Under the pieces are notes generated by a model. The model was not told where the DNA came from, made no database searches, and was given only the letters and a program-made list of their open reading frames with translations. A stretch of 64,000 bases of DNA from Ostreococcus lucimarinus (lineage: Eukaryota): the NCBI GenBank assembly GCA_000092065.1, contig CP000585.1; one strand, 5' to 3'. Made by a program: the position numbers and the translations under genes. Shown here in pieces: positions 3,691-60,232 of the stretch (the first letter of the stretch is position 1; the number at the start of each line of letters is the position of its first letter).

Positions 3691-5109
3691 TTACGGCGCG
3701 CGGCGCGCGTCGAGCGCCCGGAGCGCGCGCTCGGCGACGTCGGCGCCGATCGCGTCCGCGGGTCCGGCGCCCTTGCCCTGACACGCACCGACGGCTATGA
3801 TGTTCGCGCCTGGGCCTAGTGTTTGAATTTTCAACGAACCGTCGTCGGACGTGGAGTACGCGCACGCCTTGGACGTCAAGCTTTGGAAATTCGTCGAAGG
3901 AAACAAGTGGAATAAGATTTCTTGGAGCTGATCCGCCACGACTTCGTCGCCGTCGCTGGACATCCAATCCGCGAGCTCGCGTTCGGTGCGAGCCCAACTC
4001 GGGTCGCTCTTGTCGAAGTAGTCGAGCGGGCCTCCACCGATCTTGATGTACCACCCCGGCGCGGGTTCGGGGCCCGGGTAATAAATCGGCGGCAACACGT
4101 AGACGGATTTCGCCTCGTTCACGCTGTGATCGCTCCCTCCGCCCGACGACGCGCGCACGCGCGCCGCATCGAGCACGGCTCGAGGTACCTCGTACTTGAT
4201 CGTGGGCATCGTCGCGAGCGCGCCGAGCGCTTCGGACTCGAGCACCTCGGCGAGTAAAACGGTGCGCCGCGCGATTTTCACGTCGCCGAAATCCGCGCTC
4301 GCGTCGTCCGTCAATAACCCGCACTCGCGCGCCAGGGGCTCGGTGTAGAACCCACACGCGAGCACACACACGTCACACGCGTACGTCTCCCCCGTGGACG
4401 TGCGCACCTCGCACTCGCCCGTCGCCGCGTTCGATTCCACGCGTTCGCACGTCGTCCGCGTCACCGTCGCCCTCCCCTCGCTCGCCCTCCGCATCAGCGC
4501 GTTCTGCGCCGCTCGCATCGCGTGCGGGTTCACGTACCCCCCGACTTCGTCCCACACCGCCTCGTACTCGCTCGGAATCCCATCTCGCGCGAGAAATCCC
4601 CACGCCTCCGCGACGCCGCCGTCCGCGTTCGTCCTTCGCTCGTGCGTCACCCCTCGCGCTCGCAACCGCGCCGCCCCTCGCTCCACGAACGCCTCGCTCC
4701 CGATCGCCAGCGACCCTTTACGCGTGAAAAACTGTATCCCGCTCAGTCGCTCCGCTTCCTCGAACCCATCGATCGATCGCGCGTTCAGCGCCGTCCACTC
4801 GTCTCGTCCCTCCGCGTCGAGCGGCCGCGCGATGCGTCCCAGATCATCGCTCCCGCTCCGCAGCCGCTCGCTGTCCAGCACCGCCACGCGCAGCTCCGGT
4901 CGACGCTCGCTGACGTGCCTCGCGCACGCCGCGCCGATCGGCCCGTTCCCGGCGACGACGACGTCGACGCGCGTCGCCGTGCGTGGGTCCTCGTTCATTC
5001 GCGCCGTCGCGTCGCGTCGCCCGCGGTCACCGCGCCGCGCGCGCGACGCGACGCGACGGCGCGCGACGCCCGCTCGCGTCGTCGACGCGCCCGCGCCCGC
5101 GCGCGACAT
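3691..5109 (-). CDS. FAD-dependent oxidoreductase (DAO/sarcosine-oxidase-like).
   Basis: N-terminal dinucleotide-binding fold VDVVVAGNGPIGAACARHV...VAVLDSER. The track start at 5151 is GTG. The first ATGs are at 5109 (MSRAGAGAS..., Arg/Ser-rich presequence-like) and 4998 (MNEDP...). Confidence 0.7.
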   Translation of the reverse strand: MSRAGAGASTTRAGVARRRVASRARRGDRGRRDATARMNEDPRTATRVDVVVAGNGPIGAACARHVSERRPELRVAVLDSERLRSGSDDLGRIARPLDAEGRDEWTALNARSIDGFEEAERLSGIQFFTRKGSLAIGSEAFVERGAARLRARGVTHERRTNADGGVAEAWGFLARDGIPSEYEAVWDEVGGYVNPHAMRAAQNALMRRASEGRATVTRTTCERVESNAATGECEVRTSTGETYACDVCVLACGFYTEPLARECGLLTDDASADFGDVKIARRTVLLAEVLESEALGALATMPTIKYEVPRAVLDAARVRASSGGGSDHSVNEAKSVYVLPPIYYPGPEPAPGWYIKIGGGPLDYFDKSDPSWARTERELADWMSSDGDEVVADQLQEILFHLFPSTNFQSLTSKACAYSTSDDGSLKIQTLGPGANIIAVGACQGKGAGPADAIGADVAERALRALDARRAP

Positions 5110-21571: not shown

Positions 21572-23086
21572 ATGGCGCGCGCGAAGATGACGTCGAGGCG
21601 CGCGCCCGGCGGTAAGGTCCGCCGTCCGCAGTTCACCGTCGGGTCGCCTCGCGCGCCCGCGCGCGATCGCGTCGGCGCGAGCGACGCCGCGCGGCGCAAC
21701 CGCACGCTCGCGCGCGTCTTCGCGCTCGGCGAGGATTGGACGGTGGCGGACGCGCGCGCGCGCGAGCGAGCGTTCCTCGCCGAGTGCGACGACGGCGCGT
21801 GGACCGGGCTGACGACGTACGACGCGCTGGAGGAACACGGGCTGTTCACGGCGGTGGTGGAGGCGGGATGGCACGAATTGTGTCGAGCGCTCGGCGTCGA
21901 CGAGGACGAACGCGCGGCGTACGGACCGTGGCGGTACGTTCCGGGACGGATTTCGCACGAAGCGGTGCCGTGGGATGATTTCGACGAAATGTATTGGAAG
22001 CACAAGGCGAAGGGACTCGTGGACGACGATTTGATCGAGACTTTAGAAGACGAAGGCGACGAAGACGAATACGTCACGACGCACGCCAAGCTTTCTCGCG
22101 ACGACGTGGCGTCGCTTCTGGAGGAGTACGGTAAGCGTTACCTGTTCCTCATCGTCCGCGAATTTGAAGGCGCCGACCACGTGGCGGCGAAGAGCCTAGC
22201 GTTGGACGCCAATATGGAGTACGTGCGGCACCAGCACGAGCAGAAGAGCGCGCACCCGGGCGTGCCCATGGCGAGGCTTTTAGATCCGAAAGAGCTCTCT
22301 TTCGACGAAATCAAGGCTATGTATAAGGCGGCGGGGCTGCGCGTAGGAAAGAACGCCAAGCGCGAGTCGCTTCTCAGAGAACTCGTCATTGAGGACAGAG
22401 CGCTCGAGCTCGACGCGTACGGAAAGGCGTTCGCAAAAGTTGTGAAGCGGCTCGACGTGGAGACCAAAAAGTTGCAGGACAAAATAGAAAAAGCCGTGAA
22501 CAAAGCCGTCAAGTCCGTGATCATCGACAAGTGGGACACCGATCGCAAAAATGATTTCCTCGCCACTCACGACCATTGGAGCGACGAGCGAAAGAAGGCT
22601 TGGCACGATGGCGTTGCCAGTCGATTGAAGAAGACGCAGAACGCGAAAAAGGTGCAGCCGAAGACGACGAAAGCGCAGCCGAAGACGACGAAAGCGCAGC
22701 CGAAGACGACGAAAGCGCAGCCGAAGACGACGAAAGCGCAGGCTAATAAACCGGCGAAACCCAAACGAAAACGAAACGATCCGTTGGTCACGTCGGACTT
22801 CGCCGTCGGGATGGAATTGTACGTCCGAGGCGCGAAAGGCGAGACGTGGCACGCCGAGGTGACGAAAGTGCGACCGTCGAACGCGAAGTGCCCGATCGAG
22901 GTAGCTTGGCTCGTCAAGCAAAGCGATGATGCATACGTGTACTGGGACTGCGCGCACAGAGACGTGATCGATTTGCGCACCGTCCTCGAGACGCACGCGC
23001 CCGGGCACTTTCCAGCCGGGAAACGCGCGCGGTGCGTCGCGTGCGAGGCGGCGAAAACCACGTGCGCCAAGCGCGCGAAGACGTGA
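21572..23086 (+). CDS. Hypothetical nuclear protein with a SAP-like motif, 4-5 tandem KAQPKTT repeats and a C-terminal basic region.
   Basis: ATG at 21572. LSFDEIKAMYKAAGLRVGKNAKRESLLRELV resembles a SAP DNA-binding motif. The repeat block is (T)KAQPKTT x4-5. No clear family. Confidence 0.55.
   Translation: MARAKMTSRRAPGGKVRRPQFTVGSPRAPARDRVGASDAARRNRTLARVFALGEDWTVADARARERAFLAECDDGAWTGLTTYDALEEHGLFTAVVEAGWHELCRALGVDEDERAAYGPWRYVPGRISHEAVPWDDFDEMYWKHKAKGLVDDDLIETLEDEGDEDEYVTTHAKLSRDDVASLLEEYGKRYLFLIVREFEGADHVAAKSLALDANMEYVRHQHEQKSAHPGVPMARLLDPKELSFDEIKAMYKAAGLRVGKNAKRESLLRELVIEDRALELDAYGKAFAKVVKRLDVETKKLQDKIEKAVNKAVKSVIIDKWDTDRKNDFLATHDHWSDERKKAWHDGVASRLKKTQNAKKVQPKTTKAQPKTTKAQPKTTKAQPKTTKAQANKPAKPKRKRNDPLVTSDFAVGMELYVRGAKGETWHAEVTKVRPSNAKCPIEVAWLVKQSDDAYVYWDCAHRDVIDLRTVLETHAPGHFPAGKRARCVACEAAKTTCAKRAKT
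22650..22748 (+). repeat. 21-nt coding tandem repeat (aagcgcagccgaagacgacga), about 4.7 copies, encoding KAQPKTT.
   Basis: Direct reading of the sequence at 22649-22748. Confidence 0.9.
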
Positions 23087-47608: not shown

Positions 47609-48283
47609 CTACATCTCCAACAGTCCCCGCAACGCCTCCCTCGCATCGTCCTTTTCCGCATCCCGTTTCCTCTTCCTATCCTTCTTCTCTCGCTTCCTAT
47701 CCTTCGGCTTCGCCCTCGAGACCCCCCCGCCGGCGCCGAGCTTCTCCGCGCACCGCGCGCACGCGCGCACCTTCATCATCGCCTTCTTCCTCACCCCTCC
47801 CTCGTCGTACGCGAACACGCACTCGAACGACGCCAACCCATCGCTCGTCTCGCATCTCTTCTCGCCGCACGTGAACTGCCCCTTCCCCGCCCGCACCTCC
47901 GCCGCCGTTCGCCACCGCGCCCCCGTCTCGCCGTCTCGCGTCGTCGCGTCGAACACCGCGTACGCCTTGTACAGCTTTTCGTGATACCGTCTCGCCAGTC
48001 GCACCGCCCACGCGTCGCCGCGCCTTTCGTCCTCCTCGTCGTCTCTCACGAATCGGTGCTCGCGCGCCAGCGCGTCGCCGTCGCCGCGCGCGCGCCGCGC
48101 GTTCGCGCCGCAGAACCGCTCGTGCGCGTCGAGCAGCGCGGCGTGACGCGCGCGAGGGCTCAGCCGCGCGAAGTCGGCGCGATCGAGCGCGGCGCGCGCG
48201 ACGTCGTCGCCGCGCGCGCGCCGCATCGCGCGTCGCGGCGTGCGGGCGACCGACCGCGCGGGCGCCGTGCACGCATAAATCAT
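47609..48283 (-). CDS. FRA10AC1: FRA10AC1 homologue.
   Basis: RYHEKLYKAYAVFDATTRDGETGARWRTAAEVRAGKGQFTCGEKRCETSDGLASFECVFAYDEGGVRKKAMMKVRACARCAEKL matches the conserved Fra10Ac1 core (YHKKLFKEY...GKGQFxCGxKxC...). The ATG at 48283 is verified. C-terminal Lys/Arg-rich tail. Confidence 0.7.
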   Translation of the reverse strand: MIYACTAPARSVARTPRRAMRRARGDDVARAALDRADFARLSPRARHAALLDAHERFCGANARRARGDGDALAREHRFVRDDEEDERRGDAWAVRLARRYHEKLYKAYAVFDATTRDGETGARWRTAAEVRAGKGQFTCGEKRCETSDGLASFECVFAYDEGGVRKKAMMKVRACARCAEKLGAGGGVSRAKPKDRKREKKDRKRKRDAEKDDAREALRGLLEM

Positions 48284-48392
48284 CCATCACACATGGGCGA
48301 ACGGGTCGCAGAGTACGCGATCGAACGCGCGGGCGCCGTACACGCATAAATCATCACACATGGGCGAACGGGTCGCGGAGTACGCGATCGAA
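48258..48392. repeat. Tandem duplication (about 69 + 66 nt, about 92% identical) spanning the FRA10AC1 start codon and 5' leader.
   Basis: cgcgggcgccgtgcacgcataaatcatccatcacacatgggcgaacgggtcgcagagtacgcgatcgaacg is followed by a near-identical copy at 48327. The copy creates extra upstream ATGs, including a 25-codon uORF. Confidence 0.85.
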
Positions 48393-48617
48393 CGCCCGCG
48401 GCGCGCGATAAAAATCGACCGCGCGACGTCACCCGTTTGACCGCGGCGCCGCACACGCCGGCGCGCCGCGCGACCGCGCGCGCACGAGCGCGCGGACGTC
48501 GAGCGCGACGTGAAGCGTCGCGTCGTCGCGGCGAGCGCGCGCGCGACGCGAGGAAGCGAACGCGACGCGACGCGAGGAAGCGAACGCGAAGACGCATTCG
48601 CGCGCGCGGCGCGCACG

Positions 48618-56709: not shown

Positions 56710-59316
56710 TTATTTCGCCGCCGTCCTCGCCGGACCGCTTGCGGGATTAAAGTTACGCTTGAGCGCGTCCCTGTTTCCGCCGAGGAACCGAATGAGGGAG
56801 AAAAGCTCGTCGCGCACGAGCCACGTTCGAACGGCACCACGATCGGCGACAAGACAGCCGATGTTGTGCGATGGGACTTCGAAGGGTGAGTCGAGACGAC
56901 TGAGCGTCGCGATGGTTCGCTCCTTGACAGGCGAGTGGCCGTACACGGTGCTGTGCTTGCCCCAACCAGTGACGACTTGAATCTCTTCAGGCAAGTCGCG
57001 AATGTCGATCGGCATTTCGGACTTATTCTTCAACCCTGATACGAGCGCACGCGTTCCTTTGCCCGCGGCTCGAACGTCGAGCGGTGCCAAAGCGCGTTGA
57101 CGCATTCGGCGCAACCACCAACGTAAGACGCACTGCGCGGTGCCGGCGGAACGAATACGGTGCAGGTCTAAAACACCGAGATCGTCCTCGCATTGGAAGT
57201 GCCCAGCCGCTTGAGCTTGTTCGAGCCACGTCGTTGCGCGATCCCATTGACCCATCTCCTCGCAAACATCGATGAGCGCGTCAAACGTGAGCGCGTTTGG
57301 CACGATCCCTTCACTCGTCATTTGCGTCATCGCCTCGCCCGCCTTTTGCCACTCTTTACGAGCCTCATACGAAATCAATAGCGAGTTGTACGTGTGCACG
57401 GTGCGCGTGACGTCGCTCGTCAGCATGTATTTGAATGTGTCCTCCACCTCGGCGTACTCGTTGTTAACGTGAAGCACTCGGAGCAGGGCGTCGGAAACGA
57501 ACCCTCGCCATCCTGGAACTTCTTCGAGCTCGCGATCGTCGGCGAGCGCGCGTATAAGAACCGGGAGGTTCCCGACTGGACTATCGCTCACGTCGCACGT
57601 GCGTTCGAATTCGGGCAAATCGATGCCCTCCAATTCGGCTCGCTTGATTTCCTCGCGAAGCCTTTCCTCGCGACACGCCTGAAGCTTTTCAATACCGCAC
57701 AAGCAATCGAGTGTGATGGTGTCCGGCGCGAATCCCGAAAGAAGAAGTTCTTTATATATTTTCGTCGCGCGCACCCAGTCACGCTCTGCGCTCGCCTCCA
57801 TCAGGAGCGTGTTGTACGTGACGAGAGTCGATCGCACGCCCTCCGTCTCCATCACTCGTAAAACCCGTTGCGTGCCTTCAAGATTACCCGCCTTGACACA
57901 CGCCCCGAGCGCGCTGTTGAATATCACGGCCGTCGCGTGCAAACGCGGGGCAATGATGACTTGATGCAGGAGCTCGAGAGCCCGATCGATGTTGCCGCTA
58001 TTGCCGTGCGCGGTGATTAACACGCTGTACGTGGTTTCGTTCGGCATGACCCCCGCGCGCTGCATGGATTGGCTCATATTTTCCATGTCACGAATGCGTC
58101 GCTGCCTTCCGAGCGATTGCAACATACCGTTGTATGTCGTCACGTTTCGCCTGACACCTTCCGTTTGCATGCGCTCAAACACGGCGGCGGCGTCCTTGTA
58201 ACGGCCCGAGTTCACCGCGGCAGAGAGCAATGCGTTGTACACACCCGTGTCCAATTGCACGTGCGAGCTCGCAAACAAGCTTTCGAATAACTCGCTCGCC
58301 TTTTCGAATTGTCCGCCCTTGCCGTACGCGCTGATGAGGGACGTGTACACGCGCACGCTCGGGTGCCACGTGGGCCCGCGACCTCTGAAGTCGCGCTTCA
58401 TCTCCTCAAACGTTTGTTCGGCGAGCTTCCACTCAATCGCACGCGCGTACGCCGCGATCACCTCGTGATACGTCTTGGCATCCGGACCCGGGCCGTGCTC
58501 TCGCATCTCGCGCAGCAATCTCGTCGCGTCCGCGCTCGCCGGCGGACGCGAGCGCTTGCACGCTCGCAGCGTCATGTTGTAAAACGCCAGCGGCACCGCC
58601 ACGCCGTTTCGCTCGCCCGCCTTCTTCATCCGCTGCAGCGCCGAAATCGCCTCAGGCGCGTCTCCGGTATCCGCCGCGCGCAGCATCACCGCCCCATCCA
58701 CCGCCCACATCGCGTCGTTCGCGTCCCACGCCGCGCTCGTCGACTTCTCGTCGTCGTCCGACCGCAGCGCTCGCTCGAGCGCGCCGTACGACGACGACAA
58801 CCCACCGTTTCGCCGCCCACTCCCGTTTCCACCCGTCGCGCGTCGCCACCCTCGTCGACCACCGTTCGCCGCGCCATCGAACCCGCTCCCGTCGCCCGCC
58901 GCGTCGAAATCCTCGTCGCCGCTTCGCCGCGTCGTCACCTCACCGCGCGGACCCTCGACGATTTCCAGCCCCTCCCGCGCCCAACCCCGTCGCGTCGCGA
59001 CTCCCGCGTACGCCCGCGTCCCGTTCGACGCCGCCGCGCTCGACCCGTCGTCGTCGTCGTCCTCGTCGCGCGTCGTCTCGTACGACGCGAGCGCGTCGCC
59101 CTCGTCGTCGTCGTCGCGACTCGTCGCTCTGCGGTTTTTACGGCTCGCGCGCGCCGTCACGCGCGCGCCGCGCGTCGCCATCGCCGCGCGCATCGCGCGT
59201 CGCTCGAGCGCGTCCGCGTCGCTCGCGCGTCGCGCCGTCGTCGTCGACGCGCGCGGTCGTCGTCGCGCGGTCGTGCTTCCCACCGGCGCCGTCGCGACGC
59301 CGCCGCGCGTCGCCAT
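56710..59316 (-). CDS. Pentatricopeptide-repeat (PPR) protein with a C-terminal SMR-like domain, probably organelle-targeted.
   Basis: More than 15 PPR-like repeats (e.g. VTYNTLLMEASAERDWVRATKIYKELLLSGFAPDTITLDCL, TYNSLLISYEARKEWQKAGEAMTQMTSEGIVPNALTF). C-terminal ...VLDLHRIRSAGTAQCVLRWWLRR... is Smr-like. The ATG at 59316 is verified. N-terminal Arg/Thr/Ala-rich presequence. Confidence 0.75.
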   Translation of the reverse strand: MATRGGVATAPVGSTTARRRPRASTTTARRASDADALERRAMRAAMATRGARVTARASRKNRRATSRDDDDEGDALASYETTRDEDDDDDGSSAAASNGTRAYAGVATRRGWAREGLEIVEGPRGEVTTRRSGDEDFDAAGDGSGFDGAANGGRRGWRRATGGNGSGRRNGGLSSSYGALERALRSDDDEKSTSAAWDANDAMWAVDGAVMLRAADTGDAPEAISALQRMKKAGERNGVAVPLAFYNMTLRACKRSRPPASADATRLLREMREHGPGPDAKTYHEVIAAYARAIEWKLAEQTFEEMKRDFRGRGPTWHPSVRVYTSLISAYGKGGQFEKASELFESLFASSHVQLDTGVYNALLSAAVNSGRYKDAAAVFERMQTEGVRRNVTTYNGMLQSLGRQRRIRDMENMSQSMQRAGVMPNETTYSVLITAHGNSGNIDRALELLHQVIIAPRLHATAVIFNSALGACVKAGNLEGTQRVLRVMETEGVRSTLVTYNTLLMEASAERDWVRATKIYKELLLSGFAPDTITLDCLCGIEKLQACREERLREEIKRAELEGIDLPEFERTCDVSDSPVGNLPVLIRALADDRELEEVPGWRGFVSDALLRVLHVNNEYAEVEDTFKYMLTSDVTRTVHTYNSLLISYEARKEWQKAGEAMTQMTSEGIVPNALTFDALIDVCEEMGQWDRATTWLEQAQAAGHFQCEDDLGVLDLHRIRSAGTAQCVLRWWLRRMRQRALAPLDVRAAGKGTRALVSGLKNKSEMPIDIRDLPEEIQVVTGWGKHSTVYGHSPVKERTIATLSRLDSPFEVPSHNIGCLVADRGAVRTWLVRDELFSLIRFLGGNRDALKRNFNPASGPARTAAK

Positions 59317-59488
59317 CGTCGCGTCGCCGCGCGTCGCGGTGCGTCGCGCGAGACTTCGTCGCGTCGCGCGCGCGTCGTCGCCGCGCTCGCGTCGCGTCGC
59401 GCGTCGCGCGCGCGCGTGTGACGCCGCGCCGTCGCCGCCGCCGGGCCGACCGCCTTATCTGCGACCGCGTGTGCGCAAACAGTGAGGA

Positions 59489-59650
59489 CGTACGTATACG
59501 TACCCCAGATGGGTAAAGTGCGCGCTGAATACGTATACGTACCCCAGATGGGTAAAGTGCGCGCTGAATACGTATACGTACCCCAGATGGGTAAAGTGCG
59601 CGCTGAATACGTATACGTACCCCAGATGGGTAAAGTGCGCGCTTGAATAC
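59489..59650. repeat. 39-nt tandem repeat, about 4.2 copies (acgtatacgtaccccagatgggtaaagtgcgcgctgaat), relatively AT-rich. It lies in the intergenic/promoter region between the divergent PPR-SMR gene and the gene starting at 59672.
   Basis: The period of 39 nt was verified at four successive positions (taccccagat at 59501, 59540, 59579, 59618). The copies are near-identical. Confidence 0.9.
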
Positions 59651-59671
59651 GAGCGGCGCACCGCGACGCGC

Positions 59672-60232
59672 ATGCGCGCGACGCCGCGCGCGCGCGCGCG
59701 CGTCGCGACGCCGCGACGTCGGCGACGACCGCGCGCGGTGACGCCGATCGCGTCGGCGTCGTCGGACGCGCGGCGCGCGACGCGACGCGTCGCGCTGACG
59801 ACGACGGCGATCGCGCTCGCGGCGTTCGGCGACGCGCGCGACGCGCGCGCGCGGCCGCTCGCGGTCGTCGAGGCGCGCGACGCGGTGGCGCGCGACGGCG
59901 GACGGTTTACGTTTGAGATCGAGCTTCCGAGGGGGTATCACTTCACGGAGGGCGCGAACTCGAGGTACGAGACGACGGCGGCGGCGAGCGGGACGAGGGG
60001 CGCGCTGGAGGGCGACGGCGGAGCGAAGAGGACGGTGGTCGTGCGCGCGGCGGAGGGGGTGAACGAGGCGCGCGTGGATTGCGTGGTGTATTTTTGTCGA
60101 ACGGATGACGTGTGCCTGATGCAGCGCGTGCGGTTCGAGGTGCCGGTGGCGACGGGGGGGGCGAGCGAGACGACGGCGGAGTACGTCGTCGCGGCGGAGG
60201 CGAACGACGCGGCGGTGCCGAGTTTTGATTGA
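59672..60232 (+). CDS. Hypothetical protein with a transit peptide and a twin-arginine-like signal. It is possibly targeted to the thylakoid lumen and carries a Cys pair.
   Basis: ATG at 59672. MRATPRARARVATPRRRRRP...RRVALTTTAIALAAFGDARDARA (RR plus hydrophobic core plus AxA). Mature part ...FTFEIELPRGYHFTEGANSRYE...VDCVVYFCRTDDVCLMQRVRFEVPV. No family recognised. Confidence 0.5.
   Translation: MRATPRARARVATPRRRRRPRAVTPIASASSDARRATRRVALTTTAIALAAFGDARDARARPLAVVEARDAVARDGGRFTFEIELPRGYHFTEGANSRYETTAAASGTRGALEGDGGAKRTVVVRAAEGVNEARVDCVVYFCRTDDVCLMQRVRFEVPVATGGASETTAEYVVAAEANDAAVPSFD

Follow-up and report, generated by a model that had tools for sequence, protein, structure and literature searches.

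A locus-specific, copy-number-variable 39-nt tandem repeat in a divergent spacer of Ostreococcus lucimarinus

Results

A tandem array between two divergent genes

The window analysed here, a stretch of 64,000 nucleotides from O. lucimarinus strain CCE9901, contains two divergent genes whose start codons, at 59316 (minus strand) and 59672 (plus strand), enclose a spacer of 355 bp, as an earlier note on this DNA had stated and as the listing of open reading frames confirms. Within this spacer lies a tandem array of a 39-nt unit. The features of the locus are:

56710-59316, minus strand: gene for a PPR protein of 868 aa, divergent, its start codon 175 nt from the array
59473-59488, plus strand: left flank of the array, GCGCAAACAGTGAGGA, the best-conserved spacer block across related species, outside the 39-nt unit and inside the 70-nt unit of a related lineage (see below)
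59491-59529, plus strand: repeat unit 1, 39 nt, in the register TACGTATACGTACCCCAGATGGGTAAAGTGCGCGCTGAA
59530-59568, plus strand: repeat unit 2, same sequence as unit 1
59569-59607, plus strand: repeat unit 3, same sequence as unit 1
59608-59647, plus strand: repeat unit 4, 40 nt, with an extra T at 59643/59644 that makes a TGA at 59644-59646
59648-59651, plus strand: terminal TACG, right-hand microhomology arm, a copy of the unit's initial 4 nt that accounts for the "0.1" in the 4.1 copies
59491-59502, no strand: first of four perfect 12-nt palindromes, TACGTATACGTA, the others starting at 59530, 59569 and 59608
59509-59646, plus strand: upstream reading frame using the ATG of each unit, MGKVRAEYVYVPQ three times and then MGKVRA and a stop, out of frame with the gene
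59672-60232, plus strand: gene for a 186-aa protein (XP_001417697.1), beginning 20 nt downstream of the array

The sequence of the 186-aa protein is exactly that of XP_001417697.1/ABO95990.1 (UniRef100_A4RX54), a "predicted protein" of O. lucimarinus CCE9901, and has no match in Pfam. A PDB search aligned its C-terminal part, at E 1e-12, with the C-terminal domain of Arabidopsis SUPPRESSOR OF QUENCHING 1 (SOQ1), represented by 7DJM and related entries, over a segment that spans a YxC-x5-C motif; the SOQ1 domain is n-DsbD-like and carries a redox Cys pair, C1006-C1012 (bioRxiv 10.1101/2021.03.16.435614). Judged by this similarity, the protein is a predicted stand-alone homologue of the SOQ1 C-terminal (n-DsbD-like) domain with a Cys-x5-Cys pair. 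Its N-terminus (RRATRRVALTTTAIALAAFGDARDARA) resembles, by eye, a twin-arginine lumen signal, which together with the SOQ1 match bears out the label "lumen protein" that had been given to the gene. Downstream of it lies CHLH, the gene for the magnesium chelatase H subunit, and all related contigs examined share the gene order PPR, small gene, CHLH.

On the other side of the spacer, the designation "PPR-SMR gene" holds for its first half only: strong PPR matches were found with Pfam, while no SMR domain was detected either with Pfam (E up to 10) or in a PDB sequence search with the last 160 residues. Read by eye, the C-terminus of this protein (56713-57192, minus strand) looks Smr-like (LDLHR...VVTGWGKHS). 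The PPR start codon is itself spanned by a tandem duplication of 134 nt (59151-59403; 1.9 copies, 81% identity), which yields two MATRG starts 44 codons apart, and gene callers accordingly give products of 868 or 827 aa. Elsewhere in the window, a perfect 21-nt tandem repeat of 4.2 copies (GCAGCCGAAGACGACGAAAGC; 22654-22741, 100% matches, score 176) is probably an in-frame coding repeat of 7 residues.

Structure and composition of the repeat

Tandem Repeats Finder placed the array at 59491-59651, with a period of 39, 4.1 copies, 99% matches and a score of 313; such a head-to-tail arrangement belongs to the size class of minisatellites, whose units measure about 10-100 bp (PMC3887541). The repeat had been described as "perfect 39-nt x4", of which the four-unit tandem array stands, only three of the units being perfect: the 39-mer given in the earlier note has exact matches at 59492, 59531 and 59570, and the fourth copy, from 59609, is a near-perfect one that consists of the 39-mer plus one inserted T (GCGCTTGAAT). 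The 39-mer was not matched once in 100 dinucleotide shuffles of the window. As had also been noted, the array is richer in AT than its surroundings, with a GC content of 51% versus 78% in the left part of the spacer and 83% in the 200 bases to the right; it is the sole AT-richer patch in a spacer of 79% GC, and lies 20-180 nt upstream of the start codon at 59672.

Besides a double TACGTA palindrome, each 39-bp segment has an E-box-like core, CAGATG, and an ATG whose context is strong; GCGCGC is also present in each unit beside the 12-nt palindrome. The latter, whose palindromy was read from the sequence, contains two ACGT cores and extends to 14 nt in its first occurrence (59490-59503); TACGTATACGTA has 4 matches in the window, where 0 are expected, and all of them fall in the array. 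Pairing between the palindromes of separate units makes the fold of the single-stranded array far more stable than that of shuffled sequences (z of -4.5 as DNA and -5.3 as RNA). "GATA-like", one of the labels proposed for cores within the unit, does not fit, since the unit reads CAGATGGG. Outside the unit, 30 nt to the left of the array (59454-59461), there is a GATA/I-box-like CTTATCTG (CAGATAAG on the other strand), which is the only GATA-type site in the spacer and is kept in the O. lucimarinus alleles and in the related lineage.

Copy number varies among wild alleles

The comparison of repeat number between strains that had been proposed was carried out on contigs (denoted by L numbers) that encode either the identical 186-aa protein or 201- or 214-aa calls starting from the ATG of the unit, amounting to about 30 wild alleles. 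The copy numbers read from them were:

1 copy: 15 contigs (L001, L004, L007, L009, L018, L019, L028-L036)
2 copies: L011 (a contig of 837 kb) and L020
At least 2 copies: L010 and L017
At least 4 copies: L005, whose contig begins within the array
4 copies: the window (strain CCE9901)

The number of units thus ranges from 1 to at least 4, and the array varies between individuals in the manner of a VNTR (1, 2, at least 2 and at least 4 in wild alleles; 4 in the reference). These allele counts are biased to the single-copy state, as metagenome assemblies break at or collapse repeats, and some of the arrays read as multi-copy may combine more than one strain. N-gaps interrupt scaffolds L002 and L003 at the repeat and L001 just after its single unit, and four contigs (L005, L006, L008 and L010) terminate within the repeat, the usual effect of a strain-variable repeat on short-read assemblies.

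Between L011 and the window, the flanking genes are 99.8-100% identical and the spacer 94-98%; the two are therefore conspecific alleles. Two haplotypes of the unit could be distinguished, one combining TATGCG with GGTCAAG and the other TATACG with GGTAAAG, and these are mixed in the wild multi-copy arrays, whereas the array of CCE9901 is homogeneous, which argues for a recent expansion in this strain.

Two of the contigs show further peculiarities. Relative to the window, L011 (4001-4486) has an additional A in the last unit, an additional CG in a (CG)n run and a later frameshift, so that its called product is 161 aa long with a scrambled C-terminus; these indels may be long-read errors or may reflect decay of the gene in that strain. 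L030 is a mosaic, in that its CHLH is 100% identical to that of L013 (from the related lineage described below), its small gene is 100% identical to that of the window, and its spacer resembles that of L013 in the left part. The sample from which L030 came contained both lineages, and the mosaic reflects either recombination between them or a chimeric assembly.

The spacer in related lineages

Five contigs (L012-L016) represent a close relative. Its identity with the window is highest in PPR and CHLH (96-97%), lower in the small gene (88-89%) and lowest in the spacer (68-80%); the lineage at "81% identity" proved to be 96-97% identical in the flanking genes. In these contigs, the spacer carries an independent duplication, 70 nt x2 (spacings of 79 and 70, copies 95-97% alike), whose unit runs from GCGCAAACAGT to GAATACGAGCGAC and includes the counterpart of the 39-nt unit. 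This homologous segment has no ACGT palindrome, and the ATG of the unit is missing in most of its copies. In distant species (47-59% protein identity), the left flank GCGCAnACnGTG is the only part that aligns, and the unit does not; it is therefore not a conserved element. No conserved or recurrent motif was found in the unit, wider conservation being confined to the flank GCGCAAACAGTG.

In a species with 53% protein identity (L021, approximately 3945-4000), an 18-nt unit, CTCGAGCGGTGAYGACGN, is repeated three times directly upstream of the called start of the orthologue, a further case in which a tandem array arose independently in this place. For the 186-aa gene, balancing selection was considered briefly and set aside, the profile being that expected of a fast-evolving small gene, its transit peptide and a spacer.

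A single-copy progenitor flanked by TACG microhomologies

Three wild contigs (L028, L030 and L032) carry the exact 39-mer of the window once, in the context GGAAG-TACG-TATACGTACCCCAGATGGGTAAAGTGCGCGCTGAA-TACG-AGCGG. The two TACG arms are non-extendable and lie 39 nt apart, with 35 nt between them, and the array of CCE9901 ends in an extra arm of this kind, the TACG at 59648-59651 that follows unit 4. For microhomology-mediated tandem duplications (MTDs), the paired arms are defined as measuring 4-25 nt, at a spacing of 3-500 nt (PMC8639346); the single-copy allele falls within these limits and, with the terminal arm of the array, bears the signature of such a duplication. By our own estimate, a 4-nt match at random breakpoints would occur by chance in roughly 0.4-1% of cases.

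The array may accordingly be pictured as having arisen as follows. The ancestral state, which is also the commonest one, would have been one 39-bp segment starting with TACG and followed directly by a second TACG. Mispairing of these two 4-nt microhomologies during replication would then have produced a tandem duplication, from which slippage or unequal exchange between the repeated units could have led to the four copies of CCE9901; pairing of the 12-nt palindromes between units in single-stranded DNA should favour such slippage. The main consequence would probably be structural, in that the content of the 39-bp segment is multiplied and the conserved upstream block comes to lie 117 bp further from the gene.

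The case resembles the MTDs of S. pombe (PMC8639346) in several respects: a single-copy progenitor exists in which the segment lies between identical short arms (TACG, 39 nt apart), the array consists of n units plus one terminal arm, and it is variable and apparently reversible in populations and recurs at nearby sites. It differs from them in that the arm has the minimum length (4 nt) and in that it is known from standing metagenome variation alone. MTD has recently been proposed as the main and universal seed of tandem repeats (bioRxiv 10.64898/2026.02.28.708716); our literature searches returned no report of such a case in a green picoalga. Two points weigh against this explanation. With 4 nt at the lower limit for a microhomology, other routes such as unequal crossing-over are possible, and selection, not just a mutation bias, could lie behind the overlapping duplications that two lineages have beside one and the same start codon.

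Tandem duplication in a second spacer

The window contains another intergenic array, detected with Tandem Repeats Finder:

48246-48404: second spacer array, 67 nt x2.3, 89% identity

It lies in a divergent spacer of 390 bp between a Fra10Ac1-like gene, of which it is approximately 19 nt upstream, and a fatty-acid-hydroxylase gene. Among wild contigs with an identical hydroxylase protein, three (L047, L049 and L051) have one copy, and six (L042, L043, L045, L046, L048 and L050) have a different duplication of approximately 49 nt with other breakpoints. A 24-nt repeat of 2.2 copies at 48538-48589 also varies. Taken with the duplication at 59151-59403, the array at 48246-48404 indicates that recurrent tandem duplication is general in these short GC-rich spacers, and this habit favours a mutational explanation over locus-specific selection.

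Possible effects on the expression of the neighbouring genes

A regulatory effect of the array copies is possible. It could conceivably be exerted by the multiplied TACGTA palindromes, by a shift in the spacing between the conserved upstream block and the gene or, should the array be part of the transcript, by extra upstream ATGs. Repeats are enriched in plant 5'-UTR and upstream-200 regions (PMC3887541), and promoter VNTR/eQTL repeats can modify expression in humans (PMC4857002). Our literature searches on Ostreococcus minisatellites, promoter repeats and TSS or TATA data gave nothing specific to this locus. None of the 7- to 9-mers of the unit is enriched or recurs elsewhere in the window, and the MYB/GATA cores that had been suggested found no backing in any result. 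The putative repeated transcription-factor sites, one of two alternatives in the earlier note, have little support. A motif seemingly shared with the second array, ATGGGYRAA, was discarded as a promoter motif because its only other site lies inside a long coding ORF and the reasoning is circular.

The stronger proposal, that the array is an adaptive regulatory one made of putative bZIP (TACGTATACGTA, a double "A-box") and bHLH (CAGATG) modules whose copies are selected to tune the SOQ1-CTD-like gene, the PPR gene or both, appears unlikely to us. It would account for the presence, in the unit and nowhere else in the window, of a perfect 12-nt palindrome containing two ACGT cores, for the position of the spacer's only AT-richer patch within 20-180 nt of a start codon, and for the independent duplication of overlapping segments in two lineages; moreover, as the neighbouring gene belongs to a photoprotection pathway, a tuning of its expression between light niches is plausible. 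Against it, most wild alleles have a single copy, the commonest variant of the unit (TATGCG) breaks the perfect palindrome, and the related lineage does without both the ACGT palindrome and the ATG. Furthermore, no k-mer of the unit occurs in the other spacers of the window, the shared-looking motif being uninformative, and a second, unrelated spacer duplicates in the same way, which speaks for a mutational habit and not for selection at this locus.

An adaptive role of the array would parallel that of tunable promoter repeats in yeast. Vinces et al. are said to have described, in 2009, variable promoter tandem repeats in yeast as a source of "transcriptional evolvability". Like the variable promoter repeats of yeast, human and plant, the array is found no more than approximately 200 bp ahead of a start codon, has a higher AT content than its surroundings and differs in copy number between individuals; unlike them, it has a complex 39-bp unit instead of a simple AT-rich microsatellite. 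The 30-bp MAOA-uVNTR and the INS VNTR are classical promoter minisatellites with documented allele-specific expression. The array shares with them a unit of tens of bp, a small number of units and a position just upstream of a gene, but it has no sequence relationship to them, and allele-specific expression is documented for those two only. Plant bZIP factors recognize sites with an ACGT core, such as the A-box TACGTA and the G-box CACGTG; TACGTATACGTA amounts to two abutting A-box palindromes, a resemblance only, and in contrast to such sites the motif is unconserved in the nearest lineage and unenriched in the window.

Upstream ATGs and coding potential

As the period of 39 equals 13 codons, the array can be read through in a single frame, and, with A at -3 and G at +4, the ATG of each unit stands in strong context; the main ATG has a weak one. 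In CCE9901 the ATG of the last unit is at 59626, and the extra T closes the upstream frame 25 nt before the main ATG; in many alleles the ATG of the last unit is in frame with the gene, which explains the gene calls of 200, 201 and 214 aa. Within the 45 nt between the ATG of the unit and the main ATG, four different frameshifting indels were found, with the 186-aa ORF intact:

Insertion of A: L004 and L009
Insertion of T: L007 and the window
Deletion of 1 nt: L008
A different deletion of 1 nt: L010

From these indels, and from the loss of the unit's ATG in the related lineage, it follows that the segment is non-coding and that the start codon is the one at 59672. A coding repeat, a conserved uORF and the use of the unit's ATG as the true start were all excluded in this way, the frame being unconserved among alleles whose main ORF is intact.

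We regard it as very unlikely that the array lies in a transcribed 5' leader in which upstream ATGs set the translation of the main ORF, by way of a 45-codon repeat-encoded uORF or of an N-terminal extension, depending on the allele. The strong-context ATG in every unit opposite a weak main ATG, the frequent choice of the unit's ATG by gene callers, the closure of the CCE9901 frame just ahead of the main ATG and the highly structured leader that would result are all in keeping with such a role. The four frameshifting indels are not, since they leave the frame relation unconserved and would give some alleles a long overlapping out-of-frame uORF, and neither is an ATG that is absent or variable in the related lineage. 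The tolerance of out-of-frame upstream ATGs would be easier to explain if the unit's ATG lay upstream of the transcription start, and hints that this ATG is either untranscribed or irrelevant.

The unit is confined to one locus

Within the 64-kb window, no further copy of the 39-mer exists at up to 3 mismatches. JGI metagenome contigs scanned with a degenerate 26-nt core of the unit, GTACCCCAGATGGGTMAAGYGCGCGC, gave 3 matches, 3/3 of them in this spacer, and viral contigs gave 0 matches to the unit. The earlier note had held that occurrence at many unrelated loci would point to a dispersed element; the window, the metagenome and the viral contigs yielded this locus only, and a dispersed element is thereby ruled out. 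A transposable element or MITE was rejected on the same ground of a single locus, and because the palindromes are internal to each unit and not terminal. An RNA gene was likewise discarded, as Rfam 15 had no match at gathering threshold in the whole window (best local E-value 0.1, sub-threshold).

Origins as part of a dispersed mobile element, as a viral insertion, as an array of small-RNA genes or as an assembly artefact are therefore extremely improbable and already largely refuted: palindromes and tandem structure can occur in such elements and one wild scaffold (L017) fuses the repeat to unrelated low-GC DNA, but no second locus and no Rfam family at threshold came to light, independent wild contigs hold multi-copy arrays with distinguishable units, and the 156-bp array is shorter than one Sanger read of the finished reference genome. 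In L017, nucleotides 1-1560 (approximately 50% GC, encoding the C-terminal part of a poly(A) polymerase with PAP_central and PAP_RNA-bind) are joined directly to two repeat units at approximately 1561, a junction due either to chimeric assembly or to a rearrangement with its breakpoint in the repeat.

Discussion

Overall, the array is probably a young minisatellite, locus-specific and variable in copy number, that lies in the promoter or 5' leader of the SOQ1-CTD-like gene and is non-coding, seeded by TACG and expanded by slippage. The analysis establishes the repeat itself, its restriction to one locus, the variation in its copy number, a single-copy progenitor with its arms and the fact that the segment is non-coding; from these we infer a replication-slippage mechanism and a near-neutral or modest regulatory effect. 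The earlier suggestion of a "young minisatellite" has held up well, given an array found at one locus, with identical units in the reference and 1 to at least 4 copies among wild alleles, and most likely we are dealing with a real but ordinary promoter minisatellite of a well-known kind, recently expanded in CCE9901 after seeding by the TACG microhomology.

One bolder reading is that copy number acts as a heritable, reversible expression dial for the SOQ1-CTD-like lumenal redox protein, and that this is the reason why one patch of the spacer close to the gene was amplified independently, with a unit of 39 nt in O. lucimarinus and of 70 nt in its nearest relative. We hold this to be unlikely. 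Were it true, wild Ostreococcus, almost without spare regulatory DNA, would tune photoprotection to local light, and core-promoter duplication seeded by microhomology would be a general route of regulatory evolution in ultra-compact genomes.

Read as a promoter minisatellite, the array offers a clean natural case in a marine picoeukaryote, with a single-copy progenitor, its arms and several expanded states in wild populations, and it agrees with a recent proposal in which most tandem repeats are seeded by microhomology-mediated duplication. It can serve as a ready-made PCR marker for strain typing, and, if copy number affects expression, it would give easy experimental access to a gene related to photoprotection in an algal group amenable to transformation. 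It also marks, along with the second array, the very short GC-rich spacers of Ostreococcus as recurrent hotspots of tandem duplication, at which metagenome assemblies break.
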